Source: Myxococcales bacterium
GTDB taxonomy: Bacteria > Myxococcota_A > Polyangia > Nannocystales > Nannocystaceae
Assembly (NCBI GenBank): GCA_020633315.1
Contig: JACKDV010000004.1
Span: 576,071-587,987 of the forward strand
DNA: 11,917 bases
Direction of reading: 5' to 3'
Notes under the pieces: model-generated
What the model was told of the DNA's origin: nothing
Database searches by the model: none
Seen by the model: only the letters and a program-made list of their open reading frames with translations
Part shown: positions 2 through 11,852 of the stretch, piece by piece
Position numbering within the stretch: the first letter of the stretch is position 1
Layout: every line of letters starts with the position of its first letter
Position numbers and translations under genes: made by a program

Positions 2-892
2 CTGCACGAGCAGGCCGCAGCGGCGGCCGTCGCCGCGCTGGGTCCCCAGCACCCCGCCGCCGCCCAGATGCGCGACAACGTGGCCACCCTGCGCTGGAGC
101 CTCGGCGATCGCGAGGCATCGCTCGAGCTCGCGCGAGAGATCATCGCCGATGCGCCCGAGCCGGGGGCGGGCGGCGATGCGCAGCGACGCTGCTCGCTCG
201 CGGGGCGCCTGCGGGAGGTGGGCCGCATGCAGGAGGCGCAGCAGGTCCTCGCGCCCGTGCTCGCCTCCGACGCGGCGCTGGAGCAGATGGAGCCCCCGTG
301 CCTGCTCATCGCCGGCTTCGGGCTGGCGATCGCGGGGCGACGACCCGAGGCGGCCCACCTCCGCGAGCTCCTCGAGCCGCGGCGAGCCAGCCTCCGCGAT
401 CCGCAGCTCCGCTACTGGTGGGATCTGCTCGAGGTGCTGCTGCGGGAGCCGGACGACCCCGAGGCCGCGGCCGCGTCGCTGCAGCGGATGTCGGAGGTGG
501 GCCGTTGGCTGTTCCCCGACGAGCCGAGCCTCACCCACTGGGCGCCGTCGCTGCTGGCCCGCAACCGCTGGCGCGCGGGAGACTGTGCCGGCGTCGAGCG
601 GGCGACCGCTCCCGTGCTCGAGGCGCTCGAGGGGCCGCTCGATCTCTCGCAGACCCGCTGCGCCTTCGTGCGGGCGCGCTGCTCGGCCGCCGCGGGCGAC
701 GAGGCCGGCGCCATGCGATGGCAGGCCGTCACCGCGCGCGGCCTGGCAGAGCTCGAGGTGGCCTCGGCCCCCGCCCAGGACCCCCTGGGGCCGTGGCTGG
801 AGCCCGATCCGGGGACCGACGAGAAATCCTCGAGCCCCCGAAATCCCGCGCCGGGCCCCGCGACACTGCCCCGGCATGACGATGATCCCTAG
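2..892 (+). CDS. 3' portion of a TPR-like helical-repeat protein; the reading frame is open to the window edge, so the gene continues upstream. The first ~50 aa align with the TPR tail of the Ser/Thr kinase at 8397..8546 (LHEQAAAAAVAALGPQHPAAAQMRDNVATLRWSLGDREASLELAREIIA vs LHRRALAISIAAQGPNNGTALSIRNNLALNYQAAGDLEAAIAELEALLE), and the C-terminal tail is similar too. Likely C-terminus of a paralogous kinase or TPR sensor.
   Basis: Frame 2 has no stop from base 2 to the TAG at 890-892. It contains a TPR_10/12-like motif (LGPxHPxTxxxxxNLAxxYxxxGxxxEA), GC3-rich codon usage, and is a paralogue of the tail of the 6414..8909 protein. Confidence 0.6.
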   Translation: MHEQAAAAAVAALGPQHPAAAQMRDNVATLRWSLGDREASLELAREIIADAPEPGAGGDAQRRCSLAGRLREVGRMQEAQQVLAPVLASDAALEQMEPPCLLIAGFGLAIAGRRPEAAHLRELLEPRRASLRDPQLRYWWDLLEVLLREPDDPEAAAASLQRMSEVGRWLFPDEPSLTHWAPSLLARNRWRAGDCAGVERATAPVLEALEGPLDLSQTRCAFVRARCSAAAGDEAGAMRWQAVTARGLAELEVASAPAQDPLGPWLEPDPGTDEKSSSPRNPAPGPATLPRHDDDP

Positions 893-2771
893 CCGTACCC
901 TTGGCCTGGAGCTCGCGCTGCTCGCCCTCGCCCCCCTCGCGGCGTGCTCCGAGCTGGAGCCCCGCGACCTGCTCGAGCAGGACCGCAGCATCGACGACGA
1001 AGACGTGGCGATGCCCCACGCGGTGTACTTCCCCCTGGTCACGCGCAAGGACCCGACCTGGGGCACCACCTCGATCACCTTCCACGACCTGGGCGGCACG
1101 ACCAATGCGTACGTGTTCGAGGCGCTCGATGCCGCGGGGCAGGTGGTGTGGTCGAGCGGGGTGGGGACGATCACCGCGGCCTCGGGCAGCTCCCAGCCGC
1201 TGCACCAGGTGGCCCTGCCCGAGGGCTTCCGCGGGTCGATGGTGCTCCGCAGCTCGCATCCCATGGCCGCCACCGCGGTGCAGACGGACCTGAGCAACCG
1301 CCCCATGTACAACGGCTCGACCTTCAACGACGGCGAGCGCGAGCTGTACCTACCCAGCGCCGAGTCCGGCCACGCGGCGCTGGTCGCCATCCAGAACGTG
1401 ACGATGCGCGACGTGACGGTGCAGGGCACCACCCTGGCCCCCGGCGCCTCGCTGCTGCTCTCGGGCTCGGCCCAGGTCACCCGCCTCGAGGCCAGCGGTC
1501 GCATCGCCGCGGTCACGCTCGAGGAGACCACCGCACGCTACGGCACCGCGACCGAGGCCGTCCCGGCGCGCACCCGCTCGGTGATGGCGATCGCCCAGTG
1601 CAAGGACTCGTGGCGCACCTACTCCTCGTACGAGCTGCACAACCCGCAGGGGGGCTGGGAGCAGGCGAGCATCCGCTACACCAACGGGCGCGAGCAGGCG
1701 GTGTGGCTGGCCCCCGGCGAGACCAAGCGGGTCTCCTCCTGCGACGCGGGCGATCGCGACTTCAACGGGGGGGCCGTGATCTCGGCGGGCGCCCCGGTCG
1801 CGGTCACCGGCTCGGTGCACCACATGGACCTGCCCGGCCGCACCGGCTTCGTGGGAGCGGCCAGCGGCGCGGAGATCGTGGCGCTGCCCTACGTGCGCTG
1901 GTGGCCGGATCCGTCGACCACCCAGCAACGCACGTACATCGCGGTGGCCAACACCTCCACCGATCGCTCCATCGACGTCGACGTGGCCTACTTCGACGCC
2001 AACGGCGGGCTGCTCGACACCCACTCGCTGGTCATCCCCCCCGAGGGCAAGGCCAACACCTTCCCGTGCCGCGACGGCGAGTGCGACTGCACGGGGCTGC
2101 TGAGGTTCGGCACCCCCGACGGCAACGAGGCGGCCCCGCGCTGTGACGATCCCTCCGCTCCCCTCGCGCCCCGTCGCTGGGGCGGCTCGGCGCGGATCAT
2201 CTCCAGCGATCCCCAGTCGGTGCTGGTGACGGCCCGCACCGCCACGGTCACCCCGGCCGGCGCGGCCTTCGACGCCGAGGACTACAACGGCGTGGCGGTG
2301 GATGCCCCCGACCTGCCGTTCATGGGCGTGCGCGGGCTGCCCAACGGGGCCCACACCCTGGAGTACCGGGTGGTGTCGCGCTGCAAGCCGGTCACCGCCG
2401 ACGAGATGGTCGCGGCCTACACCCTCGAGATGGACGTGGAGCTCGCCGGCAGCTCGGGCCACCGCACGATCACCATCGACGCCGTGCGGGCGCGCGACGG
2501 GTGGCACGCCGGCGACGTCGACGGCACCGTGCTCGACAGCCCCATCGGACACCCGCTGACGATCACTGGCCACGAGCCCGACGGCAGCACCGTGGTGTGG
2601 GACGCCGGCATCAGCCAGGGCTGGCTGCTCGAGCAAGGCAAGCAGTGGCTCCCCGACGTGCCCGCGCTCGACCTGCAGCGCGACCTGGTGCTCGAGACCA
2701 CGCTGGTCAACGGCGAGGAGAACGGCGCGGGCAACTGCGCGGCGATCCACCTGCTCGGCCTGCGCGACTGA
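876..2771 (+). CDS. Hypothetical secreted lipoprotein of ~631 aa with internally repeated beta-rich modules and no recognisable family. The signal peptide plus lipobox reads MTMIPSRTLGLELALLALAPLAAC|SE.
   Basis: There is an ATG at 876, with an alternative ATG at 882. Both lie in the same frame as the long ORF 150..2771, whose upstream part is a spurious extension overlapping the previous gene. The N-terminus has a basic n-region, a hydrophobic h-region and an L-A-A-C lipobox. The gene overlaps the previous CDS by 17 nt, which suggests translational coupling. Several Cys are present (CRDGECDC). Repeated segments resemble YxPxV...GxxxxVxVxN...D..G... Confidence 0.6.
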   Translation: MTMIPSRTLGLELALLALAPLAACSELEPRDLLEQDRSIDDEDVAMPHAVYFPLVTRKDPTWGTTSITFHDLGGTTNAYVFEALDAAGQVVWSSGVGTITAASGSSQPLHQVALPEGFRGSMVLRSSHPMAATAVQTDLSNRPMYNGSTFNDGERELYLPSAESGHAALVAIQNVTMRDVTVQGTTLAPGASLLLSGSAQVTRLEASGRIAAVTLEETTARYGTATEAVPARTRSVMAIAQCKDSWRTYSSYELHNPQGGWEQASIRYTNGREQAVWLAPGETKRVSSCDAGDRDFNGGAVISAGAPVAVTGSVHHMDLPGRTGFVGAASGAEIVALPYVRWWPDPSTTQQRTYIAVANTSTDRSIDVDVAYFDANGGLLDTHSLVIPPEGKANTFPCRDGECDCTGLLRFGTPDGNEAAPRCDDPSAPLAPRRWGGSARIISSDPQSVLVTARTATVTPAGAAFDAEDYNGVAVDAPDLPFMGVRGLPNGAHTLEYRVVSRCKPVTADEMVAAYTLEMDVELAGSSGHRTITIDAVRARDGWHAGDVDGTVLDSPIGHPLTITGHEPDGSTVVWDAGISQGWLLEQGKQWLPDVPALDLQRDLVLETTLVNGEENGAGNCAAIHLLGLRD

Positions 2772-2892: not shown

Positions 2893-4242
2893 CTACTCGG
2901 CGCTGAGGCTCGAGCCCTCGCGCGGCACCGTACGGTCGACCCCGGCCGCCTTGGGCCAGCCCAGCGCGTGCAGGAAGCCGATGGTCCCCCACAGCGCCGG
3001 CCAGAACCCGCGGAAGCTGCGGTAGGGGATCCCGTGGTCCTCGCAGGCCTCCCGCACCACCGGCGCGATCACGGGGTAGAGGTGCACGGCCATGCTGGGG
3101 AACAGGTGGTGCTCGATCTGGTGGTTGAGCCCGCCCGAGATGAAGTTGGACCAGCGCGAGGCGGAGCCCCAGTTGGTCGTGCCCATCACCTGCTGCTCGG
3201 CCCAGTGTCGATCGTTGGGCGGCACCAGGTCCTTCTGCAGGTGATTGACGATGAAGATCCCCTCCATGTAGTAGGAGCCGATCCCCAGCATCACCAGGGT
3301 GGTGAGCACGCCGTGCAGCGGTCCCAGCACCACCATGGGCAGCACCAGGTGCACGCTGCCCCAGGCCACCTTGTGCAGCATGGCCAGCGTCAGCGTGCGG
3401 CGCTCGAGGTGGAACGAGGCGTTGACCACCCGCCCCCGCAGCAGGTGGGTCACGTCGGAGACCAGCCACTTGACCATCCCGACGCTCATGCCGATGGCCA
3501 GCCCGATGTGCTGGATGCGGTGCCAGGGGCGGTGCGGGATCTCGGGGTGGAAGCGCAGCAGCGGCGTTCCGATCTCGCAGTCGTTGTCGTAGCCGTAGAT
3601 GTTGGGGTGGCCGTGGTGGGCGAACTGGTGGGCGTGCCGCCAGATGATGCTCGAGCCGCCGATGTACTCCATCAGCAGCCCGCACAGGCGGTTGCGGATC
3701 GAGCGGCGGGCCACCGCGGCGTGGTTGCCCGAGTGCATCAGGAAGCCCATCCGCGCCATCATCACGCCGCCGACGATGGCCGCGAGGTACGAGCCGTCGA
3801 AGGCGCGGAAGTACCAGGCCACCGCGTAGATCGAGGCCACGATCACCGCCTCGGTGGCCATGATCCATCCCCCCGAGCGGTAGTCGAGGCCGCGCTCGCG
3901 CAGGCGCTCGGCCACCCGCTGCTGCACGTCGTCGAAGAACGTGGGGTTGCCCCGGCTGAGGACCTCCGCCGGATCGAGCGAGCCCACGTGCCGCGTCCTG
4001 CGACCCAGCACCCGCCGCGCTCGCTCGAGCGACGGCCCCGGGTGGTAGGACTCGAACAGCGGAGTGGCCTGACGTCCGGCCGCGAGCTTGAGCAGCCCGC
4101 GACCGGGATGCTTGGGCATGAACTCGCCGAGGTCATAGACCTCGCCGTCCACCACGGTCCAGTACGTCCCGTCCCGGCCGTCGTGGCGGGCCACTTCCTC
4201 CATCGTGTACGTACGGGGTGCCAAGGGCCGTGAGCATGGCAC
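2893..4242 (-). CDS. Front-end-type membrane fatty-acid or sphingolipid desaturase with a fused N-terminal cytochrome b5 domain.
   Basis: The cytochrome b5 heme motif reads ...KHPGRGLLKLAAGRQATPLFESYH. The desaturase His boxes are HSGNH and HQFAHH. The third box, NHQIEHHLFP, carries the QxxHH variant that is diagnostic of front-end desaturases (delta-4/5/6/8). There is a hydrophobic transmembrane stretch between b5 and box 1. The GTG start at 4242 has an alternative ATG at 4203 (M14), so the start is uncertain. The stop is TGA/TAG at 2893. Confidence 0.85.
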   Translation of the reverse strand: MPCSRPLAPRTYTMEEVARHDGRDGTYWTVVDGEVYDLGEFMPKHPGRGLLKLAAGRQATPLFESYHPGPSLERARRVLGRRTRHVGSLDPAEVLSRGNPTFFDDVQQRVAERLRERGLDYRSGGWIMATEAVIVASIYAVAWYFRAFDGSYLAAIVGGVMMARMGFLMHSGNHAAVARRSIRNRLCGLLMEYIGGSSIIWRHAHQFAHHGHPNIYGYDNDCEIGTPLLRFHPEIPHRPWHRIQHIGLAIGMSVGMVKWLVSDVTHLLRGRVVNASFHLERRTLTLAMLHKVAWGSVHLVLPMVVLGPLHGVLTTLVMLGIGSYYMEGIFIVNHLQKDLVPPNDRHWAEQQVMGTTNWGSASRWSNFISGGLNHQIEHHLFPSMAVHLYPVIAPVVREACEDHGIPYRSFRGFWPALWGTIGFLHALGWPKAAGVDRTVPREGSSLSAE

Positions 4243-4409
4243 GAACCGCCGCGAGCCCCGGTCATCGCTCGGTCATAGTCTTGTCGCCGCAGCTCATCAG
4301 CCGTGACTTTTCCCGAGTGAGCTAGCTCGATGCGCAAGCTCGTTCACGCCCGAGCGCCGGCCGATCGCGCTTGCCAACCGTGCGCCTGCCGTGCAAAGAC
4401 CGCGCCGTG
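4243..4409. promoter_or_regulatory. Divergent intergenic region between the desaturase (-) and cfa (+). It is the lowest-GC stretch in the window. It contains a perfect 10-bp palindrome, GAGCTAGCTC (4319-4328), and a direct repeat of CGGTCAT at 4259-4265 and 4270-4276 (11-bp period).
   Basis: The motifs were read directly. No clear sigma-70 -35/-10 consensus was identified. Confidence 0.3.
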
Positions 4410-5603
4410 ATGATGGATGGGGCCAAGGCGATGAGCGCGGTGCGAGAGATGTTCGAGGCGGCCAGTCCCGCCAAGAGGGGTCAGCGCGCCGAGGCGGTGG
4501 TGCGCGAGCTCTTCGAGTACGCAGGGATCGACATCGGCGGGGGCTCTCGCGGCCACATGATCGTCCACGACGAGCGCTTCTACGAGCGCTTCTTGCGGGA
4601 CAAGTCCATCGGCCTGGGCGAGTCCTTCATGGACGGCTGGTGGACCACCGACGCTCTCGACGTGCTCATCGAGAAGATCCTGCGCGCAGACCTCAAGAGC
4701 AAGGTGACCGGGAGCTGGAAGCTCAAGCTGCTCACGGCCGAGGCCATGCTCTTCAACCGCCAGGACGTGGACCGGGCCCAGCGCTCGATCCAGGCCCACT
4801 ATGACATCGGCAACGACCTCTATGAGCGCATGCTGGACCCCCGCATGGTCTACACCTGCGCCTACTGGACGGGCGCCACCACCCTCGAGGAGGCCCAGGA
4901 CGCCAAGCTCGACCTGGTGTGCCGCAAGGTGGGCCTCGAGCCCGGCATGAAGGTGCTCGACCTGGGCTGCGGCTGGGGTGGCTTCGCCCTGTACGCGGCC
5001 GAGAAGTACGGCTGCACCGTGGAGGGTCTGACCATCTCCCGGGCGCAGGCCGAGCTGGGCCAGGCGCGGGCCAAGGCCTCGGGCCTGCCCGTCACGATCC
5101 GCCTGGCCGACTACCGCGAGGCCAAGGGCAAGTACGATCGCGTGGTCTCCATCGGGATGATGGAGCACGTGGGCCCCAAGAACTACCGCACCGTCATGCA
5201 GCTCATCCACGATTGCATGAAGGACGACTCGGTGGCGCTGGTCCACACCATCACCAACAATCGCAGCGTGGCCCACGGTACCCCCTTCGTGGAGAAGTAC
5301 ATCTTCCCCAACGCGGTCGCCCCCTCGCCCGCGCAGCTGTGCAAGGCGATGGAGGGCCTGATGGTGCTCGAGGACCTGCACAACATCGGCCCGCACTACG
5401 ACCCCACCCTGATGGCCTGGTGGGAGCGCTTCGACGCGTCCTACCCCGAGCTGCAGCACAAGTACGACCGCCGCTTCTACCGAATGTGGCAGTTCTACCT
5501 GCTGGGCGCCGCCGGAGCCTCCCGCTCCCGCGACGGGCAGCTGCTGCAGCTGGTGATGACCAAGACCGGGCGCAAGTACCCGGACCACTGCCGGGCGAGC
5601 TAG
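4410..5603 (+). CDS. cfa: Cyclopropane-fatty-acyl-phospholipid synthase (SAM-dependent CFA-synthase / mycolic-acid cyclopropane synthase family).
   Basis: It is collinear with E. coli Cfa over the whole length: IGLGESFMDGWW, HYDIGNDLYERMLDPRMVYTCAYW, the SAM motif VLDLGCGWGG, SIGMMEHVGPKNY, EKYIFPN, and the end LMAWWERF...YLLGAAGASRSRDGQLLQLV. The start is uncertain. The ORF opens with TTG at 4371. Other candidate starts are GTG 4380, GTG 4407, ATG 4410, ATG 4413 and ATG 4431. Comparison with the E. coli N-terminus favours 4410-4431. Confidence 0.88.
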   Translation: MMDGAKAMSAVREMFEAASPAKRGQRAEAVVRELFEYAGIDIGGGSRGHMIVHDERFYERFLRDKSIGLGESFMDGWWTTDALDVLIEKILRADLKSKVTGSWKLKLLTAEAMLFNRQDVDRAQRSIQAHYDIGNDLYERMLDPRMVYTCAYWTGATTLEEAQDAKLDLVCRKVGLEPGMKVLDLGCGWGGFALYAAEKYGCTVEGLTISRAQAELGQARAKASGLPVTIRLADYREAKGKYDRVVSIGMMEHVGPKNYRTVMQLIHDCMKDDSVALVHTITNNRSVAHGTPFVEKYIFPNAVAPSPAQLCKAMEGLMVLEDLHNIGPHYDPTLMAWWERFDASYPELQHKYDRRFYRMWQFYLLGAAGASRSRDGQLLQLVMTKTGRKYPDHCRAS

Positions 5604-5620
5604 CGAGCGCCCGCGAGCGC

Positions 5621-6220
5621 CTATGGCCGCGGCGCGGTGCCGTCCCTCGAGGCCTCGAGTCGGGCCATCATGGCGCTCGCTCGCTCGGGATCGGCCGAGA
5701 GCTGGTCGAAGGCGGCGCGCAGCAGCTTGCGGCCGCGATGCAGGCGGGTCCGCACGGTGGCGGTCTCGATCTCCAGCACGGCCGCGATCTCCGGCGAGGC
5801 GAGGCCCTCGAAGTAGTGCAGCTCGAGCGCGATCTGGAAGTCGATCGGCACTTGTCGCAGGGCCTCGATCATCAGCTCCCTGGACTCGGCGCGTCGGAAT
5901 GCGGTGCTCGGCGAGGGGCCGAGGTCACGCACCGAACAGCTGCCGAAGTCGACGTGGTCGCGGGCGCGGAGCCGGCGATAGTGCTGGTAGAGCATCCGCC
6001 GCGCCACCCCGAACAGGTACGCGCGAAAGCTGCCGTGCGCGATCCGATCGCGGCCCTCCACGCAGGCCAGCATCGTGGCCTGGATGAGATCCTCGACGCC
6101 GTCGTCGAGCTTGTAGTGGAAGAAGCCGACCAGCGAGTCGAAGTGGCGACCCAGCAGCTCCTCACCCGCCCTTCGATCACCTTCGCGCCAGCGCTGGAGC
6201 AGCTCGAGATCGGTGGACAT
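5621..6220 (-). CDS. ECF-family (sigma-70 group 4) RNA polymerase sigma factor.
   Basis: Region 2 reads LELLQRWREGDRRAGEELLGRHFDSLVGFFHYKL...DLIQATMLACVEG...FRAYLFGVARRMLYQHYRRLRAR. The region 4 HTH reads ALELHYFEGLASPEIAAVLEIETATVRTRLHRGRKLL. The ORF stays open upstream to 6415. The extra 65 aa are Pro/Arg-rich with no sigma homology, so the ATG at 6220 (MSTDLELLQRW) was chosen. The stop is TAG at 5621-5623. Confidence 0.8.
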   Translation of the reverse strand: MSTDLELLQRWREGDRRAGEELLGRHFDSLVGFFHYKLDDGVEDLIQATMLACVEGRDRIAHGSFRAYLFGVARRMLYQHYRRLRARDHVDFGSCSVRDLGPSPSTAFRRAESRELMIEALRQVPIDFQIALELHYFEGLASPEIAAVLEIETATVRTRLHRGRKLLRAAFDQLSADPERASAMMARLEASRDGTAPRP

Positions 6221-6413
6221 GGTCGGGGCAAGGATAGCAGCCGACGACTGGCGAACGCGCAGGAGCTCGCGCTGCCGGCCGGCCGGATGCGAGCGCGGCA
6301 TGTGAGGTCGGCGCTCGGACGGAGGCGAGCAAAGAGGTGGCAGCGCGGTCGCCACCGGGCACACTGATGCGTGGCGCCGGGCGTCGACCCTCGAGGTCCG
6401 GTAGCGCGCTGCC

Positions 6414-8909
6414 ATGGATCCTCGCCCCCGCCCTCATCGCTTGCACGCCGAGCGCATCCTGGCGCAGGTCAAGACCTCGCTCTTCGACGCGCCGACCTAT
6501 CGCGTGGGGCGCTTCGAGCTGCGCGAGCGGATCGGCGGCGGAGGCATGGGCATCGTCTATCGAGCGCACGATCCCGAGCTCGAGCGCGAGGTGGCGCTCA
6601 AGCTGCTGCACCACGACGATGCGAGGCCCGGCGGGGCGAGCCACGCCGACTCGCTCCGCGAGGCCCGGGCCGCCGCTCGCGTGGTGCACCCCAACGTGGT
6701 CACCGTGCACGAGGTGGGAATCGCGTGCGCGGAGGCCTATGTGGCGATGGAGCTCGTGCGTGGGACGACCCTGCGGCGCTGGCTCGAGGGAGCCCGCCGC
6801 TCGGTGCCCGAGATCCTCGACGTGTTCACGGCGGCGGGGCGAGGGCTGGCGGCGGCCCACGCCGCAGGAATCGTCCATCGCGACTTCAAGCCCGACAACG
6901 TGCTCATCCGTGACGACGGCCAGGTCAAGGTGGTCGACTTCGGCCTGGCCCGCGTGTGCTCCGAGACGGTGGAGTCCCTGGAGACGACGACCGGCGCCGA
7001 GGAGCCCTCCGGCGAGTCGGTGACCCACCGCTGGGCCGGGACGCCCGCGTACATGGCCCCCGAGCAGCACCAGGGCCGGGTCGCGTCGCCCCGCACCGAT
7101 CAGTTTGCGTTCTGCGTGTCGCTGCACGAGGCGCTCTTCGGGCACCGCCCGTCGGTCGAGCCCTCGACGGGCCGCGAGGAGCTGCCCCGAACGGAGGCCA
7201 CGGTCGCGGGACGAGCCGGGGTGCCGCGGCGTGTGCTCGCGGTGATCGAGCGCGGCCTGCAAGCGCAGCCGGCCGCGCGCTGGGACGGCATGGACGAGCT
7301 GCTCGACCGCCTCGAGCAGGCCCGGCGCCGACCGAAGCTCGCGCTGCCCATGGTCGTGGCGGGGATCGTGGCGGCGGGCGTCGCAGTCGCGACGTGGCCG
7401 ACCACGCCTTCGCCGGCCGTCTCGCCGCCCTGCGACGGGCCCGATCGCCTCGATGGGATCTGGGACGACGAGCACCGGGCGGCCCTCCACGAGGTGCTCG
7501 CGGCACCGGGCCGCGACGCCAGCCTCGCCGGCGACGTGGTCGAGCAGCTCGATGACTACGCGCAGCAGTGGGGTGAGGTCGATGCGCGCCACTGCGAGGC
7601 GATGCGAGGCCCCGTGGCCCACCCCGCCCTGGCGATCCGAGCCGAGCAGTGCATCGACGAGCGGCGGCTCGCCCTCGGAGCGCTGGTCGAGGTGATCACC
7701 GGGCCCGCCGAGCTGCCTCCCGACCGGGTACGGCAAGCGGTCGCCGCGTTGCCTCGCATGGAGGACTGCGCGGACGAGCTGCGCCTGCGGGCGATGCCGG
7801 CCCCGCCCCTGGATCCCGAGGTAGCCCGTCGCGTCCGCGAGCAGGAGCGGATCGTCGAGCGGGCCCACGCCCTCAACCTCGCCGGCCAGCGCGAGCAAGC
7901 GATGTCGGTCGCGACCGAGGCCATCGCCACCGCGCGCGAGATCGGCTACCCGCCGCTCCTGGTCGAGGCTCTCAGCGAGCTCGGCGAGGCCCAGGGCGCC
8001 CTCCGGCGCCCGGAGGCGGCGGCCACCCTGGAGGAAGCGGTGCTCATCGCCGAGGAAGCGGGCGACGACCTCGACAAGACCGAGATCTCGATCTACCTCG
8101 CGGCCTACACCGCCTACTACGCTCGTGACGTGGAGGCAGCGCGATCGCATGCTCGCCGCGCCTCGGCCTCGCTCGCTCGGATCGGCACCCCCTCCGACGT
8201 GGAGATACGCCTGCTGGCCGCCCGCGCCGGCATCGAGTGGGTCGCCGAGGACTACGACGCTGCGCTCGAGCTCGCCAACCAATCGATCGAGCGCTGGGAG
8301 GCCTCGGAGCGGGACGACCCCCAGCAGATCATCTCGCCGCTCACCATGGCGGCGAACATCCACACCATGCGCGACCAGTGGCAGCAAGCCGAGCAGCTCC
8401 ACCGCCGAGCGCTCGCGATCTCGATCGCCGCCCAGGGGCCGAACAACGGGACGGCGCTGTCGATCCGCAACAACCTCGCGCTGAACTACCAGGCCGCCGG
8501 AGATCTCGAGGCCGCCATCGCAGAGCTGGAGGCTCTGCTCGAGCTCCACCGGGCCCGCGGAGCCGACGGCCGCGTCGACGTGGCCCGCGTGATGCGGCTG
8601 CTGTGCGGCCTCCACCAGGACGAGGGGGACCTCGATCGCGCCGCGGCGTGCATCGGGCCCGCGCTCGCGGCCAGCACGGCCTTGGGGCTGCCGATGGAGC
8701 AGCGCCTGACCCTCATCCGAGCCGCGAAGATCCACCTCGCCCGCGGCGAGCTCGACGAGGCCATGCGCCAGGGCTGCCGGGCCCGGGCGCTGATCGAGGC
8801 CGAGCCCGAGCCCGATCGCTCGAGGGCACGGGCCCAGCTCGCCGCTGCCTTCGAGGGCAACGACGAGCCGAGCTCGGACCGCTGTGATCCCGACGACGCG
8901 GATCAGTAG
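6414..8909 (+). CDS. Hanks-type Ser/Thr protein kinase with a single transmembrane helix and a C-terminal Cys-containing, TPR-like repeat domain that is predicted to be extracytoplasmic.
   Basis: The kinase motifs are present: the Gly loop IGGGGMGIVYRA, VALKLL, the catalytic loop VHRDFKPDNVLI (Phe in place of the usual Leu/Ile/Val), VVDFGLA, and YMAPEQ closing a long acidic Ser/Thr-rich activation loop. The TM segment is LALPMVVAGIVAAGVAVATW. After the TM there are 4 Cys (PCDG, HCEAM, QCIDE, DCADE). The TPR-like repeats resemble LGPxxxxTLxxxNNLAxxYQAAGDLEAA. Confidence 0.9.
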   Translation: MDPRPRPHRLHAERILAQVKTSLFDAPTYRVGRFELRERIGGGGMGIVYRAHDPELEREVALKLLHHDDARPGGASHADSLREARAAARVVHPNVVTVHEVGIACAEAYVAMELVRGTTLRRWLEGARRSVPEILDVFTAAGRGLAAAHAAGIVHRDFKPDNVLIRDDGQVKVVDFGLARVCSETVESLETTTGAEEPSGESVTHRWAGTPAYMAPEQHQGRVASPRTDQFAFCVSLHEALFGHRPSVEPSTGREELPRTEATVAGRAGVPRRVLAVIERGLQAQPAARWDGMDELLDRLEQARRRPKLALPMVVAGIVAAGVAVATWPTTPSPAVSPPCDGPDRLDGIWDDEHRAALHEVLAAPGRDASLAGDVVEQLDDYAQQWGEVDARHCEAMRGPVAHPALAIRAEQCIDERRLALGALVEVITGPAELPPDRVRQAVAALPRMEDCADELRLRAMPAPPLDPEVARRVREQERIVERAHALNLAGQREQAMSVATEAIATAREIGYPPLLVEALSELGEAQGALRRPEAAATLEEAVLIAEEAGDDLDKTEISIYLAAYTAYYARDVEAARSHARRASASLARIGTPSDVEIRLLAARAGIEWVAEDYDAALELANQSIERWEASERDDPQQIISPLTMAANIHTMRDQWQQAEQLHRRALAISIAAQGPNNGTALSIRNNLALNYQAAGDLEAAIAELEALLELHRARGADGRVDVARVMRLLCGLHQDEGDLDRAAACIGPALAASTALGLPMEQRLTLIRAAKIHLARGELDEAMRQGCRARALIEAEPEPDRSRARAQLAAAFEGNDEPSSDRCDPDDADQ

Positions 8910-10111
8910 TCCCAGGCCACCGACACGATGAAGTTGCTGAACGCGGTGTCGATGCGACGGGCGAAGTTGCGGCGGCACACGTCGAAGCCGCACTTGAACA
9001 GGTCGAAGTACTCGCGGTAGCCCCACAGCACCCCGACCGGCCGGTTGATGTCGTACATGCGGTACCAGGGCGAGCCGCTCTGGCCGGAGACCGAGTCGAT
9101 GTTCTGCGACTCGATGCGCCAGTCGTTGATCTCCGACGCGCCACTCATGCCGCACATGTAGTTGCCCGAGCCGGGCGCGCCCGGGCAGGTGTCGCTGGGA
9201 TAGCCGTAGGTCGCGAAGGTCGAGTTGGCGGCGTTCGCCTGGTAGCCACCGAACCAGTTGGGCGCGCTGTGACACGGGAAGGTGTCCATCACCGCGTAGT
9301 CGAGGCTGTCCTGCTGTCCGGTGTAGTACCCGGCGGGCACCGACCACAGGTAGTCGTTGGTCGAGCTCGCATCGTCGAGGCGGCAGTCGAACGATCCGTA
9401 GGGCAGCGTGCCGCCGTTGCGCGCCGGCTGGAACACGATGCGGTTGACCCGGTCGGTGTCGCTGAACACCAGGCAGTGGGCGGAGGTGATCACGGTCCAC
9501 GGCCCGATGTAGGAGCCGCTGCACCAGCCGCGATAGGTGTTGCCGGTGTAGAGCTGGAGCTTGACGATCGCGTTGTAGGGCGCCACGGTGGTGTCGAACA
9601 CCCGGGTGCGGCCGTCGGGGCCGATGACCTGGCGCATGACCATGTCGGGCTCGACGCTCGGGCGTCCCTCACCCTCGCGATCGAGCACGTCGTACGACAG
9701 CGACTCCTTGGAGCCGGAGAGGACCGCGTCGGCGGCCTCCCACGCCGGCTCGCGGGCGACGTAGAGGGTGTCGTTGCCGGTGGCGATCACCGGGCGCAGC
9801 ATGTCGGCCAGCTCCTCGCGCGACCACGCATCGAGGGGGATGACCTCGCCGGGCTCCTCGGTGAAGGCTCGGCGGGGCATCAAGACCGCATCGGGGCCGG
9901 GCTCGACCTCTTGCTCGACTACGGGGCCGACGAGATCGAAGACCTCGCCGTCGCGCTCGATCTCGGTCTCGAGGGGCTGATCCTCTTCCTCGACCACGCA
10001 GCCGGCGGCCAGCGCAGTCAGCATGGTCAGCGTCAGCAAGCGACCGGACGGACGAAGCGGGGAGGAGAGCAGGTGGGGGGGCTCGTTGCAGGGACTGGGG
10101 TTGGTGCGCAT
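8903..10111 (-). CDS. Secreted trypsin-fold serine protease lipoprotein of subfamily S1B (glutamyl-endopeptidase/V8-like), with a ~150-aa acidic N-terminal pro-region.
   Basis: The catalytic His is in WTVITSAHC. The Asp is in the DYAVMD context. The Ser motif is GQSGSPW...VGVLWGY (compare V8 protease GNSGSPVF...IGIHWGG). The signal peptide with lipobox reads ...RLLTLTMLTALAAGC|VVEEED. There are multiple Cys pairs. A GAGGA Shine-Dalgarno sits 10 nt upstream of the ATG at 10111. Confidence 0.8.
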   Translation of the reverse strand: MRTNPSPCNEPPHLLSSPLRPSGRLLTLTMLTALAAGCVVEEEDQPLETEIERDGEVFDLVGPVVEQEVEPGPDAVLMPRRAFTEEPGEVIPLDAWSREELADMLRPVIATGNDTLYVAREPAWEAADAVLSGSKESLSYDVLDREGEGRPSVEPDMVMRQVIGPDGRTRVFDTTVAPYNAIVKLQLYTGNTYRGWCSGSYIGPWTVITSAHCLVFSDTDRVNRIVFQPARNGGTLPYGSFDCRLDDASSTNDYLWSVPAGYYTGQQDSLDYAVMDTFPCHSAPNWFGGYQANAANSTFATYGYPSDTCPGAPGSGNYMCGMSGASEINDWRIESQNIDSVSGQSGSPWYRMYDINRPVGVLWGYREYFDLFKCGFDVCRRNFARRIDTAFSNFIVSVAWDY

Positions 10112-10439: not shown

Positions 10440-11852
10440 TCAGCCGTCGCGGCGGCGCACGTCGAGCCACACGCCCTGCGTGGGCCGCAGGGTGACCGAG
10501 GTGCTCAGCCGCAGCGGCGGCGCCGAGTCGTAGGGGCTCACCTCGAGCCGCTGCACGAGGGTGGCCAGCACCAGCACGCCCTCGAGCATGGCGAAGTGGT
10601 TGCCCACGCAGATCCGCGGGCCGCCGCCGAAGGGGAAGTAGGCGAAGCGATGCAGCCGCGCGGCGAGGCCATCGAGCCAGCGCTCGGGCCAGAACAGCTC
10701 GGGCGCGGGGAACCACCGGGGGTCGCGGTGCACCACCCACTGCCCGGTGAGCAGCTGGGCGCCCTTGGGCATGGGGAAGCCGGCGATCTCGCGGTCCTCG
10801 AGCAGCTCGCGTCCCACCAGGTAGGCGGGAGGATACAGGCGCATGGACTCGCGCAGCACGGCGTCACACAGGCGCAGCCGCGGTAGGTCGTCGACGGTGG
10901 CCGGGCGATCGCCGAGCACCTCGTCGAGCTCGGCCCGCAGCGCCCGCGCGACCCGAGGGTGATGGGCCAGCAGGTACAGGGCATAGGAGAGCGCGAGGGC
11001 GGTGGTCTCGTGGCCGGCGAGGAACACGGTGGCCACCTCGTCGCGGAGCTGCCGATCGCTCATGCCCTTGCCCTCGTCGTCCTGGGCCGCGAGCAGGCGA
11101 TCGAGCAGGTCGGCATCGCCGGCCACGGCCCGTCCCCGGCGGGCGGCGATGAGCTCGTAGAGGATCGCGTCGAGGCGCCCGACGGCATCGTCGATGCGGG
11201 CGAAGGCGGCCACCCGCAGGCGCCGAGGCAGCAGGCGGCGCCAGGTGAGGAACTCGCGGCCGTAGCCCTCCATCAGGGTGTCGACGATCTCCCCCACCCC
11301 GTCGATGTCGCGCACGGTGTCGGCCCCGAACATGGTGTCGAGCACGATCTCGAGGGTGATGCGCATCATGTCGGCGTGGACGTCCCGGCGCGAGCGGGCG
11401 GGCAGGGCCTCCACGCCCCGGCGGCTGCGCTCCACCATGGCCTCGCCGAAGCGCTCGATGTGGCGGGGCTGGAAGGAGGGCGCGGCGATCTTGCGCTGCC
11501 GTCTCCACAGCTCGCCCTCGCTGGTGAGCAGGCCCTGGCCCACGATGAGCGAGAGCGTGCGGGTGAGCTCGTCCTTCATCACGTGGGCATGCTCGCCCAC
11601 GAGCACGGTCTGGATGTCGTCGGGGTGGTTGAGCAGGTAGAGCTCGGCCAGCGGCATCGAGACGTAGACGACGTCGCCGTAGCGCTCGCGGTAGCGCACC
11701 ATCGAGCCGAGGAAGTCGGAGGAGAAGGCGAGCCCGGAGCCGAGCAGGGGCAGCGCGCGAGGACCCGGAGGACGACGTCGTCCCCCGCGATCGACCCGCG
11801 AGGAGCCGAGCACGACGCGAGGGTAGGCCGACGTGGTGGCGGTCGAGCTCAC
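10440..11852 (-). CDS. Cytochrome P450 monooxygenase of the CYP4/CYP102-like clan (fatty-acid hydroxylase-like), heme domain only with no fused reductase.
   Basis: The I-helix motif is FLAGHETTA. The K-helix ExxR is ESMRLYPP. PERW is present. The heme-binding loop is FPFGGGPRICVGNHFAMLEG. N-terminal PPGP is present. GLLTSEGELWRRQRKIAAPSF resembles P450BM3 [23 protein letters not shown]. The start is GTG at 11852, with an in-frame TAG 9 nt upstream. Confidence 0.85.
   Translation of the reverse strand: MSSTATTSAYPRVVLGSSRVDRGGRRRPPGPRALPLLGSGLAFSSDFLGSMVRYRERYGDVVYVSMPLAELYLLNHPDDIQTVLVGEHAHVMKDELTRTLSLIVGQGLLTSEGELWRRQRKIAAPSFQPRHIERFGEAMVERSRRGVEALPARSRRDVHADMMRITLEIVLDTMFGADTVRDIDGVGEIVDTLMEGYGREFLTWRRLLPRRLRVAAFARIDDAVGRLDAILYELIAARRGRAVAGDADLLDRLLAAQDDEGKGMSDRQLRDEVATVFLAGHETTALALSYALYLLAHHPRVARALRAELDEVLGDRPATVDDLPRLRLCDAVLRESMRLYPPAYLVGRELLEDREIAGFPMPKGAQLLTGQWVVHRDPRWFPAPELFWPERWLDGLAARLHRFAYFPFGGGPRICVGNHFAMLEGVLVLATLVQRLEVSPYDSAPPLRLSTSVTLRPTQGVWLDVRRRDG

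Follow-up and report, generated by a model that had tools for sequence, protein, structure and literature searches.

A divergent gene pair for a cytochrome-b5-fused front-end desaturase and a cyclopropane fatty acyl phospholipid synthase in a Myxococcales bacterium

The locus described here raises the question of whether two adjacent lipid genes of a Myxococcales bacterium, one for a fatty-acid desaturase and the other for a methyltransferase of the CFA-synthase family, form a functional unit or are only neighbours. The window, that is, the whole stretch of DNA analysed (11,917 nucleotides), contains the two open reading frames exactly where the original prediction had placed them, at 2893–4242 on the minus strand and 4371–5603 on the plus strand. 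The predicted head-to-head arrangement of a desaturase and a methyltransferase gene was borne out by the strands of the reading frames and by the family matches of their products. The following features were identified in the pair.

2893..4203, minus strand: CDS of the cytochrome-b5-fused membrane fatty-acid desaturase, 436 aa from ATG 4203
TTG 4224 and GTG 4242, minus strand: alternative desaturase starts (NCBI model, 443 aa, and longest ORF, 449 aa, respectively)
4033..4203, minus strand: N-terminal cytochrome b5 domain, HPGRG at 4096–4110, second heme-ligand His in ‘SYHPG’
3013..3786, minus strand: di-iron desaturase domain with the His boxes HSGNH (3721–3735), HQFAHH (3613–3630), and QIEHH (3106–3120)
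4204..4409, no strand: divergent intergenic/5' region, 167–245 bp by the starts chosen, GC about 0.67
4319–4328: perfect 10-nt palindrome GAGCTAGCTC within a pair of 12-nt direct repeats (4318–4329 and 4331–4342)
4410..5603, plus strand: CDS of Cfa, with alternative starts TTG 4371, GTG 4407, and ATG 4449
4953–4982, plus strand: SAM motif VLDLGCGWGG of Cfa, which aligns to VLDIGCGWGG of E. coli Cfa
4851–4868 (YTCAYW), 5157–5174 (MMEHVG), 5241–5255 (VHTIT), and 5391–5408 (PHYDPT), plus strand: bicarbonate-site residues of Cfa

The assignment of the minus-strand product as a cytochrome-b5-fused front-end desaturase was confirmed by Pfam matches to Cyt-b5 (1e-13, aa 13–70) and FA_desaturase (4e-29, aa 153–410) and by the His boxes. 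The protein P0001, “MAG: fatty acid desaturase [Myxococcales bacterium],” is 100% identical to it. Its b5 domain matched cytochrome b5/b2 chains (phmmer E 7.5e-9) with both His positions aligned and resembled cytochrome b5 with a target-normalised TM of up to 0.89 in Foldseek, and a Foldseek search against the PDB confirmed both the cytochrome b5 and the membrane-desaturase folds. The AF2 model (mean pLDDT 87.1) accommodates four membrane helices as two hairpins, 119–143 with 146–167 and 275–300 with 302–328; the hydropathy peaks were located at 114–132 and 286–304. Front-end desaturases are defined by the His boxes H(X)3-4H, H(X)2-3HH, and H/Q(X)2-3HH (PMC3423564), which the boxes HX3H, HX3HH, and QX2HH of the window protein match, with Gln in the third. 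The three boxes and both heme ligands were invariant in an alignment of 26 homologous sequences (A1). The heme motif is HPGR, a variant of HPGG; the Euglena delta-5 desaturase tolerates a change of the last Gly of HPGG to Ser (PMC3423564). HPGR was also present in P0011, P0014, P0026, and L001, and it was rejected as a marker of pair-bearing lineages because P0011 and P0026 are both without Cfa.

The most unusual feature of the locus is the clade to which this desaturase belongs, an uncharacterised bacterial group whose sister is a eukaryote-rich clade (38–48% identity; Cercozoa, MMETSP protists, and Rotaria). The bacterial clade comprised only about 50 clusters. The N-terminal b5 fusion and three His boxes, the third with Gln, are common to the window desaturase and the eukaryotic b5-fused front-end enzymes (delta-4, -5, and -6, acyl-lipid or acyl-CoA), such as the delta-5 desaturase of Euglena (PMC3423564) and the delta-6 desaturase Fed3 of bdelloid rotifers (PMC10597677); unlike them, the window protein is bacterial, belongs to a separate Myxococcota clade, and carries HPGR in place of HPGG. 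Homologue searches from the window desaturase and from P0081, a eukaryote-like match with the JGI label “delta-4 desaturase,” found no characterised enzyme, and the search from P0081 retrieved environmental sequences only; therefore, regiospecificity cannot be carried over to the window desaturase. The matches listed from pattern scans of genomes and metagenomes were mostly distant, non-fused desaturases with 25–34% identity, and the close relatives among them were L001, L002, L090, and L091 only. To our knowledge, the host is not known for a desaturase/elongase pathway to PUFAs. Myxobacterial PUFAs have been ascribed to Pfa synthases (PMC8968027).

The plus-strand product belongs to the CFA-synthase family, as predicted: it matched Pfam CMAS (9.3e-79) and scored 501.9 bits, against a cut-off of 400, with the NCBIfam equivalog NF008686, “cyclopropane fatty acyl phospholipid synthase,” in line with the first of two readings offered earlier, that of a genuine phospholipid cyclopropane synthase. 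Other models remained below their own cut-offs, namely Brucella CFA synthase (263.5 vs 600), CfaB (219.1 vs 650), and the mycolic-acid methyltransferase model (154 vs 390). The very high collinearity with E. coli Cfa that had been claimed was also found, since residues 43–398 align to 20–373 of the 383 residues of 6bqc (E. coli Cfa) with 47% identity, an E-value of 2.7e-108, and one 2-residue gap. All five bicarbonate-site residues of the E. coli enzyme, C139, E239, H266, I268, and Y317 (PMC3132707), are kept in the alignment of the two proteins. The two-domain architecture, with an N-terminal lipid-binding and a C-terminal catalytic domain, is likewise common to both; unlike its E. coli counterpart, the window Cfa gene divergently adjoins a desaturase gene. 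The N-terminal start is uncertain (4371, 4407, 4410, or 4449), and the NCBI models of identical proteins begin at GTG 4407 (P0121, 398 aa) and ATG 4449 (P0122, 384 aa).

The second earlier reading was an analogue of fungal sphingolipid tailoring, in which a long-chain-base desaturase is followed by a C9-methyltransferase. Sphingolipids are made by some myxobacteria. Both protein superfamilies also match the fungal tailoring of glucosylceramide, where a b5-fused front-end desaturase (delta-8 long-chain-base) is found with a CFA-synthase-like methyltransferase (ceramide C9) (PMC9325734). However, the fungal methyltransferase has 525 aa, a membrane anchor of two TM helices at its N-terminus, and, according to its description, a distribution limited to fungi (PMC9325734), whereas the window protein is a soluble Cfa equivalog of 384–398 aa, collinear with the E. 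coli enzyme, in which no TM segment was detected by hydropathy (maximum KD19 0.95). The equivalog score, above the cut-off, was also counted against placing it with the C9-methyltransferases. Across the window and all 13 related loci, neither serine palmitoyltransferase nor ceramide or other sphingolipid genes were found. In addition, the prediction had listed delta-4 sphingoid-base desaturases among the b5-fused enzymes; sphingolipid delta-4 desaturases are a family apart, without the b5 fusion. They form a cluster of their own in PMC5037126. We therefore regard the sphingolipid reading as extremely unlikely.

Judging from family membership and the intact active-site residues, both proteins very probably have the enzymatic activities of their families. 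The desaturase would be an O2-dependent, membrane-embedded di-iron enzyme of the front-end (Q-x-x-H-H) class, supplied with electrons directly by a cytochrome b5 domain at its own N-terminus, and it would put a double bond into an acyl chain, yielding unsaturated phospholipid chains aerobically. Cfa, presumably an ordinary soluble, peripheral, two-domain enzyme, would move a methylene from S-adenosylmethionine to cis double bonds in the acyl chains of membrane-resident phospholipids and would turn these cis-unsaturated chains into oxidation-resistant cyclopropane chains. The link to which we would commit is a substrate pool common to both enzymes, and the reading of the locus as a phospholipid acyl-chain remodelling pair with one such pool has, in our judgement, an even chance of being correct. 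Direct sequential coupling, with the product of this desaturase passing to this Cfa, is a more tentative proposal. Front-end desaturases mostly act at delta-4 to delta-8, and E. coli-type Cfa acts at delta-9 to delta-11 cis bonds; these usual positions do not overlap, which was counted against the coupling. The same non-overlap favours an explanation in which the two are chemically independent neighbours that both tune the membrane (fluidity, oxidative or acid stress, stationary phase) at different bond positions or in different lipid pools and are linked via regulation or physiology only. Consistent with this, homologues of the desaturase adjoin other lipid genes, a CDP-alcohol phosphatidyltransferase gene in L088 and an EBP-family gene in L172.

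Opposite reading from one spacer of about 0.2 kb would allow coordinated or reciprocal control, and the desaturase and cfa genes may be co-regulated. The control region of 167 bp that had been described holds as a minimum (ATG 4203 to TTG 4371) but not as a fixed size, for the spacer is 182–224 bp with the NCBI models (TTG 4224; GTG 4407 or ATG 4449) and 203–245 bp from ATG 4203. It was also said to have the lowest GC in the window, which is correct among the complete intergenic spacers (0.665 vs 0.73–0.88) but not for the window as a whole, the lowest-GC stretch of which lies inside cfa (0.593 at 5145–5311). A consensus scan of the spacer found no sigma-70-like promoter, and no Rfam family matched it. 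Its alignment with the spacers of two other pair-bearing loci, L085 and L001, revealed only patchy similarity. GTGAAC/GTTCAC-like elements and the palindrome were rejected as an operator because their placement was inconsistent between the three spacers, and neither a promoter nor an operator could be defined from the comparison. The lack of a common regulator or conserved operator among these three loci argues against independent neighbours held together by regulation.

Of the 13 Myxococcota loci of the desaturase clade that could be read, three carried the divergent pair: the window, L085/L086 (desaturase 79% and Cfa 83% identical to the window proteins), and the Kofleriaceae locus L001 (57% and 64%, respectively). 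Spacer length was similar elsewhere, with 189 bp between the called genes in L085 and about 0.2 kb in L001. No further window gene is syntenic in L085/L086 or L001, and the flanks of those loci differ from each other. The pair-bearing sub-lineages (n = 2) were separated in 100/100 NJ bootstraps. From a desaturase (P0005, 63%) and a Cfa (P0125, 73%), both from Logan and with a longest contig of 9217 bp each, we infer a probable fourth pair. In the other 10 of the 13 readable loci, Cfa was absent within 5–10 kb, including in P0006 and P0026, which are close relatives of the two pair-bearing lineages; P0026 is 77.5% identical to the L001 desaturase, yet its upstream neighbour is not Cfa. In favour of the pairing, no Cfa was found in the flanks of distant, non-fused desaturase relatives among the approximately 150 loci listed. 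Cfa homologues with at least 64% identity, a level reached by all of the best 120 of more than 8000 matches, cultured Paraliomyxa miuraensis among them, are far commoner than the desaturase clade; therefore, Cfa is in general independent of this desaturase. The restriction of the pair to three loci in two sub-lineages, its absence from close relatives, and the far greater commonness of Cfa indicate that the linkage is recurrent but labile. Thus, when checked across genomes, the predicted pairing recurs without other synteny, but only in a minority of loci, and the claim of a compact fixed module did not hold: adjacency is not conserved across the desaturase clade, contrary to what would be expected of an obligate two-gene unit. 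The genes next to the pair for an ECF sigma factor and a Ser/Thr kinase, candidate regulators of it, were rejected as part of the unit, being absent from L085 and L001.

Recurrence without other synteny is equally compatible with a pathway and with a regulatory or functional association, and the easy loss of the linkage and the commonness of Cfa further favour chemically independent neighbours. On the other hand, the exact divergent arrangement in two separated lineages goes somewhat beyond loose co-function, and we consider this explanation somewhat unlikely. The pair might also be an accident of history, in which an ancestral gene neighbourhood survived neutrally in a few lineages and has no functional meaning. 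Its retention in so few loci and the example of P0026 are consistent with this. In addition, the desaturase and Cfa of each pair cluster with their own lineage (the relatives of the L001 Cfa have 75–82% identity to it, and the window Cfa ranks 109th of 119), and therefore the pair is not a mobile cassette under obvious selection. However, it persists at 57–64% protein identity although all other synteny has been erased, the chance of one given immediate neighbour is about 1 in several thousand in a genome of several thousand genes, and the biochemical relation between the enzymes is obvious; an accident is thus improbable. Recent horizontal transfer of the pair was rejected because of the clustering of each Cfa with its own lineage and the native GC3, which is 0.961 in the desaturase gene and about 0.96 in both genes, with the neighbours alike, and therefore both look native to the Myxococcales genome. 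Against the preferred reading, a remodelling pair with a common substrate pool, we counted the clade loci that lack Cfa, the poorly conserved spacer, and the greater commonness of Cfa than of the desaturase.

Comparison with known systems bears on the order of the reactions and on novelty. The UfaM/UfaD/UfaO furan-fatty-acid pathway of Rhodobacter and Rhodopseudomonas (PMC7380195) also combines a CFA-synthase-family SAM enzyme with a desaturase, which act sequentially on phospholipid acyl chains and whose genes are clustered in R. palustris. It differs in that UfaD is a flavin enzyme of the phytoene-desaturase type, the methylase yields a methyl-branched trans-ene, and UfaO is required, all of which the window pair lacks. 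This pathway, in which UfaM is followed by UfaD and then UfaO, is a bacterial precedent for the reversed order, where Cfa or a Cfa-like methylase would modify a monoene first and the desaturase would then produce an unsaturated cyclopropane, a cyclopropene, or a methyl-diene. Cyclopropane acids are converted to cyclopropene acids in plants (PMC3132707), and the substrate of a front-end desaturase is normally already modified further along the chain. Nevertheless, the methyltransferase is a Cfa equivalog and not UfaM-like, UfaD is FAD-binding and not a di-iron PF00487 enzyme like the window desaturase, and no UfaO-like or flavoprotein gene or extra oxidoreductase was found in the window, L085, or L001; accordingly, the reversed order is very unlikely.

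The sigma-Ec/ChrR-controlled cluster smlt2375-smlt2367 of Stenotrophomonas maltophilia (PMC11832516) likewise brings a membrane acyl-CoA-type desaturase and CFA synthases together in one lipid locus, with an adjoining ECF sigma factor gene. That operon spans nine genes, which include two for CFA synthases, one for an FAD oxidoreductase, and one for the anti-sigma factor ChrR, whereas the pair consists of two genes only and its desaturase is b5-fused; unlike in S. maltophilia, the adjacent ECF sigma gene of the window is convergent, is without ChrR, and is absent from L085 and L001. The concept of a desaturase and CFA-synthase-family cluster is therefore not new, having been described in other bacteria (PMC7380195, PMC11832516). 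The original remark that the pair is not recognisable as a described operon stands insofar as we found no literature report of this desaturase/cfa pair. Nor was a report of cyclopropane fatty acids in myxobacteria found in a literature search that left aside the fatty-acid survey PMC3133044.

If the two enzymes are mere neighbours, the locus amounts to two ordinary membrane-lipid genes for which annotations already exist. If they act in sequence, they would offer a simple and transferable way to make cyclopropane fatty acids with rings at unusual positions, and a bacterial clade of cytochrome-b5-fused front-end desaturases would gain its first function. In its most far-reaching form, which we consider speculative and improbable, some Myxococcota would have a dedicated two-step pathway, in which the desaturase inserts a cis double bond where such bonds are unusual and Cfa cyclopropanates it (or the desaturase works after Cfa, on its product) to give a cyclopropane or unsaturated cyclopropane acid new to bacteria, and, separately, the desaturase clade would be the bacterial sister of the eukaryote-rich front-end desaturase clade. 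A connection between myxobacteria and eukaryotes has been argued earlier for sterols and plasmalogens (PMC12004948, PMC13012113). The eukaryotic nearest relatives of the clade are relevant to the debate over whether Myxococcota and early eukaryotes exchanged lipid genes, and if the clade is the bacterial sister of the eukaryote-rich one, the desaturase would be one more lipid gene in this connection.

Both open reading frames of the divergent pair were found exactly where they had been predicted, at 2893-4242(-) and 4371-5603(+), and both enzyme identities held. The minus-strand product carries an N-terminal Cyt-b5 domain (1e-13) followed by FA_desaturase (4e-29), and the plus-strand product matches CMAS (9.3e-79) and NF008686, the NCBIfam equivalog model of Cfa, the cyclopropane fatty acyl phospholipid synthase. 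Earlier deposits from a Myxococcales MAG already give both proteins these names (P0001 for the desaturase; P0121 and P0122 for the Cfa models). The proposed spacer of 167 bp, from ATG 4203 to TTG 4371, stands as a minimum but not as the likely value. Since the NCBI models start at TTG 4224 for the desaturase and at GTG 4407 or ATG 4449 for Cfa, and residue 43 of the TTG-initiated Cfa frame aligns with residue 20 of E. coli Cfa, the true spacer is probably ~180-245 bp. The spacer GC of 0.665 (window GC, 71.5%) is the lowest among the complete intergenic spacers, although lower values occur inside cfa. A consensus scan of the spacer revealed no sigma-70-like promoter and no terminator of note, and no Rfam element was found there; a perfect palindrome, GAGCTAGCTC, lies at 4319-4328 within a short direct repeat.

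Judged by its sequence, the methyltransferase is a genuine Cfa, in agreement with the first of the two readings in the original prediction. It scored 501.9 bits against NF008686 (cut-off 400), while every other CFA-family NCBIfam model remained below its own cut-off. The collinearity with E. coli Cfa was borne out: the protein aligned with residues 20-373 of the structure 6bqc with one 2-residue gap (47% identity, E 2.7e-108). The residues that hold bicarbonate in the E. coli active site, C139, E239, H266, I268, and Y317, are strictly conserved in non-plant enzymes (PMC3132707), and the alignment showed all five, together with the SAM motif, in the window protein. Among the matches listed, Kofleriaceae and Myxococcales MAGs supply abundant homologues (64-84% identity), and cultured Paraliomyxa miuraensis carries one. 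Cfa is in itself ordinary.

The alternative that the pair performs sphingolipid tailoring, by analogy with fungi, is scarcely credible. The fungal ceramide C9-methyltransferase is a 525-aa protein with two N-terminal transmembrane helices and is described as fungi-only (PMC9325734), whereas the window protein is a Cfa equivalog without a hydrophobic segment (hydropathy, max KD19 0.95).

A divergent Cfa neighbour was also found at the desaturase locus L085/L086 (desaturase 79% and Cfa 83% identical to those of the window) and at L001, a contig of Kofleriaceae (57 and 64%). Spacer lengths are alike: the called genes are 189 bp apart in L085, and the spacer of L001 is ~0.2 kb. The flanks of the pair differ between these two loci, and neither contains a counterpart of any other window gene. 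Those genes are as follows.

68-892, plus strand: TPR-like ORF with a weak match to the FxSxx-COOH system TPR protein model, just upstream of the next ORF
~876-2771, plus strand: lipoprotein-like protein of ~630 aa, bearing a lipoprotein-type signal (…LALLALAPLAAC…) but matching no Pfam or other family, upstream of the pair
5621 to ~6220, minus strand (ORF to 6415): ECF sigma factor, likely start at ~6220 (MSTDLELLQRW)
6414-8909, plus strand: Ser/Thr kinase of 831 aa with C-terminal TPR repeats, divergent from the ECF sigma gene
8903-10111, minus strand: serine-protease-like ORF of 402 aa with the motifs TSAHC ... GQSGSP (chymotrypsin fold) after a signal or lipoprotein-like N-terminus
10440-11852, minus strand: cytochrome P450 (Pfam, 1.2e-86)

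The ECF sigma and kinase genes lack an anti-sigma gene and resemble a kinase-associated ECF arrangement. The sigma gene is convergent with cfa, ending 17 bp from the cfa stop, and is not conserved beside the pair in L085 or L001. The 8903-10111(-) ORF had no Pfam or NCBIfam match at E<=0.01; its product is probably a divergent secreted protease. The top NCBIfam models for the P450 are terpenoid-oxidising (albaflavenone monooxygenase, pentalenene oxygenase), all far below cut-off, and no partner genes for it were seen within the window.

Conservation of the pairing across genomes proved partial. It recurs in L085/L086 and L001 but is missing from 10 of the 13 readable loci of the desaturase clade: no Cfa lies within 5-10 kb of the desaturase in L081, L083, L087, L088, L089, L091, L170, L171, L172, or the P0026 locus, leaving three pair-bearing loci including the window. 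A fourth pair, desaturase P0005 with Cfa P0125, is probable, the sole ground being a longest contig of 9217 bp for both; each is fifth in its own hit list. No Cfa was found nearby at any of the ~150 listed loci of distant, non-fused desaturase relatives. The two pair-bearing desaturase lineages grouped together in 0 of 100 neighbour-joining bootstraps, and P0026, with no Cfa upstream of it, shares 77.5% identity with the L001 desaturase. Both window genes look native because their GC3 (~0.96) is like that of neighbouring genes and each Cfa groups with its own lineage (L001 Cfa relatives at 75-82% identity, the window Cfa 109th of 119). The des-cfa linkage is recurrent but labile, whether a few lineages have kept an old neighbourhood or the arrangement arose more than once.

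Other neighbours with roles in lipid metabolism were observed at these loci. In L001, a PF04185 phosphoesterase gene (phospholipase C / acid phosphatase family) at 6735-8330(-) shares the strand of cfa and is the next gene downstream. In L088, a CDP-alcohol phosphatidyltransferase gene at 4822-5925(+) sits immediately upstream of the desaturase homologue. In L172, a Myxococcota contig, an EBP-family gene (PF05241, sterol delta8-delta7 isomerase family) at 4445-4912(+) is directly followed by desaturase homologue P0032 at 5001-6302(+), 57% identical to the window enzyme; this neighbour is intriguing in a sterol-producing phylum.

The biochemical relation within the pair is obvious, because Cfa would require cis-unsaturated phospholipid chains and its neighbour is predicted to make double bonds in acyl chains. 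Survival of the pair despite the loss of all surrounding synteny mildly favours a link in function or regulation, and adjacency by chance, with no such link, is improbable. Direct sequential coupling, with the desaturase feeding Cfa, is possible, if somewhat short of an even chance. Against an obligate form of it, the pair is often absent from close relatives, Cfa is distributed far more widely than the desaturase, and front-end desaturases usually act at delta-4 to delta-8, whereas the cis bonds used by E. coli-type Cfa lie at delta-9 to delta-11. The reading to which we therefore commit is a phospholipid acyl-chain remodelling pair predicted to share a substrate pool. That the two are co-functioning neighbours working independently is rather unlikely.

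Desaturases and CFA-synthase-family enzymes are combined in the furan-fatty-acid pathway UfaM/UfaD/UfaO (PMC7380195) and in the sigma-Ec/ChrR-controlled smlt2375-smlt2367 cluster of S. maltophilia (PMC11832516). Unlike these systems, the window pair combines a b5-fused di-iron desaturase, rather than a flavoprotein, with a true Cfa; it has no third enzyme, and the adjacent ECF sigma gene is not retained along with it elsewhere. A reversed order of action, as in furan or cyclopropene chemistry, is very unlikely. Overall, the pair puts known parts together in a simple new way and is partially conserved.

The desaturase is a b5-fused enzyme of front-end type, and its histidine boxes (HSGNH, HQFAHH, and QIEHH) conform to the pattern that defines this type, H(X)3-4H, H(X)2-3HH, H/Q(X)2-3HH (PMC3423564). 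A confident AF2 model (pLDDT 87.1) shows a cytochrome b5 domain and a pair of helical hairpins. The heme motif at 4096-4110(-) is HPGR, a variant of HPGG, and is accompanied by the second heme-ligand His. In the homologue alignment, HPGR also occurs in P0002-P0004, P0011, P0014, P0026, P0039, and L001; the substitution does not track the presence of a Cfa neighbour. In NCBIfam, the sole match was to the model titled Delta(10) desaturase DesB, and it was weak, at 39.7 bits against a cut-off of 500. One match is labelled "delta-4" by JGI, and there are delta-6 enzymes among the rotifer and kinetoplastid relatives (PMC10597677). No characterised enzyme from which regiospecificity could be transferred occurs among the matches listed.

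Among the matches listed, ~50 homologue clusters come from Myxococcota MAGs (48-79% identity); at 38-48% they give way to eukaryotic or eukaryote-like sequences from Cercozoa and Rotaria, transcripts of MMETSP and EukProt, and the intron-like contig L096. These relatives, P0054-P0120 and L096, make up a diverse, eukaryote-rich set in which environmental transcripts and bdelloid rotifers join Cercozoa and MMETSP protists; ORFs on L096 are sparse, as on a eukaryotic contig. In addition, homologues in L020 and L033 (Planctomycetota) and in L141 and L158 (unassigned metagenome) match from ~residue 25-40 at 27-29% identity and so cover the C-terminal end of the b5 region as well, a hint that bacteria outside Myxococcota may also have b5-fused desaturases. 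In the neighbour-joining tree, the bacterial desaturases formed one clade (monophyly in 79 of 100 bootstraps) beside a eukaryote-rich clade, which suggests that the two are sisters. What is most unusual is that the b5-fused front-end desaturases of Myxococcota form a clade whose sisters are eukaryotic enzymes, which echoes the myxobacterial links proposed for sterol and plasmalogen genes (PMC12004948, PMC13012113).
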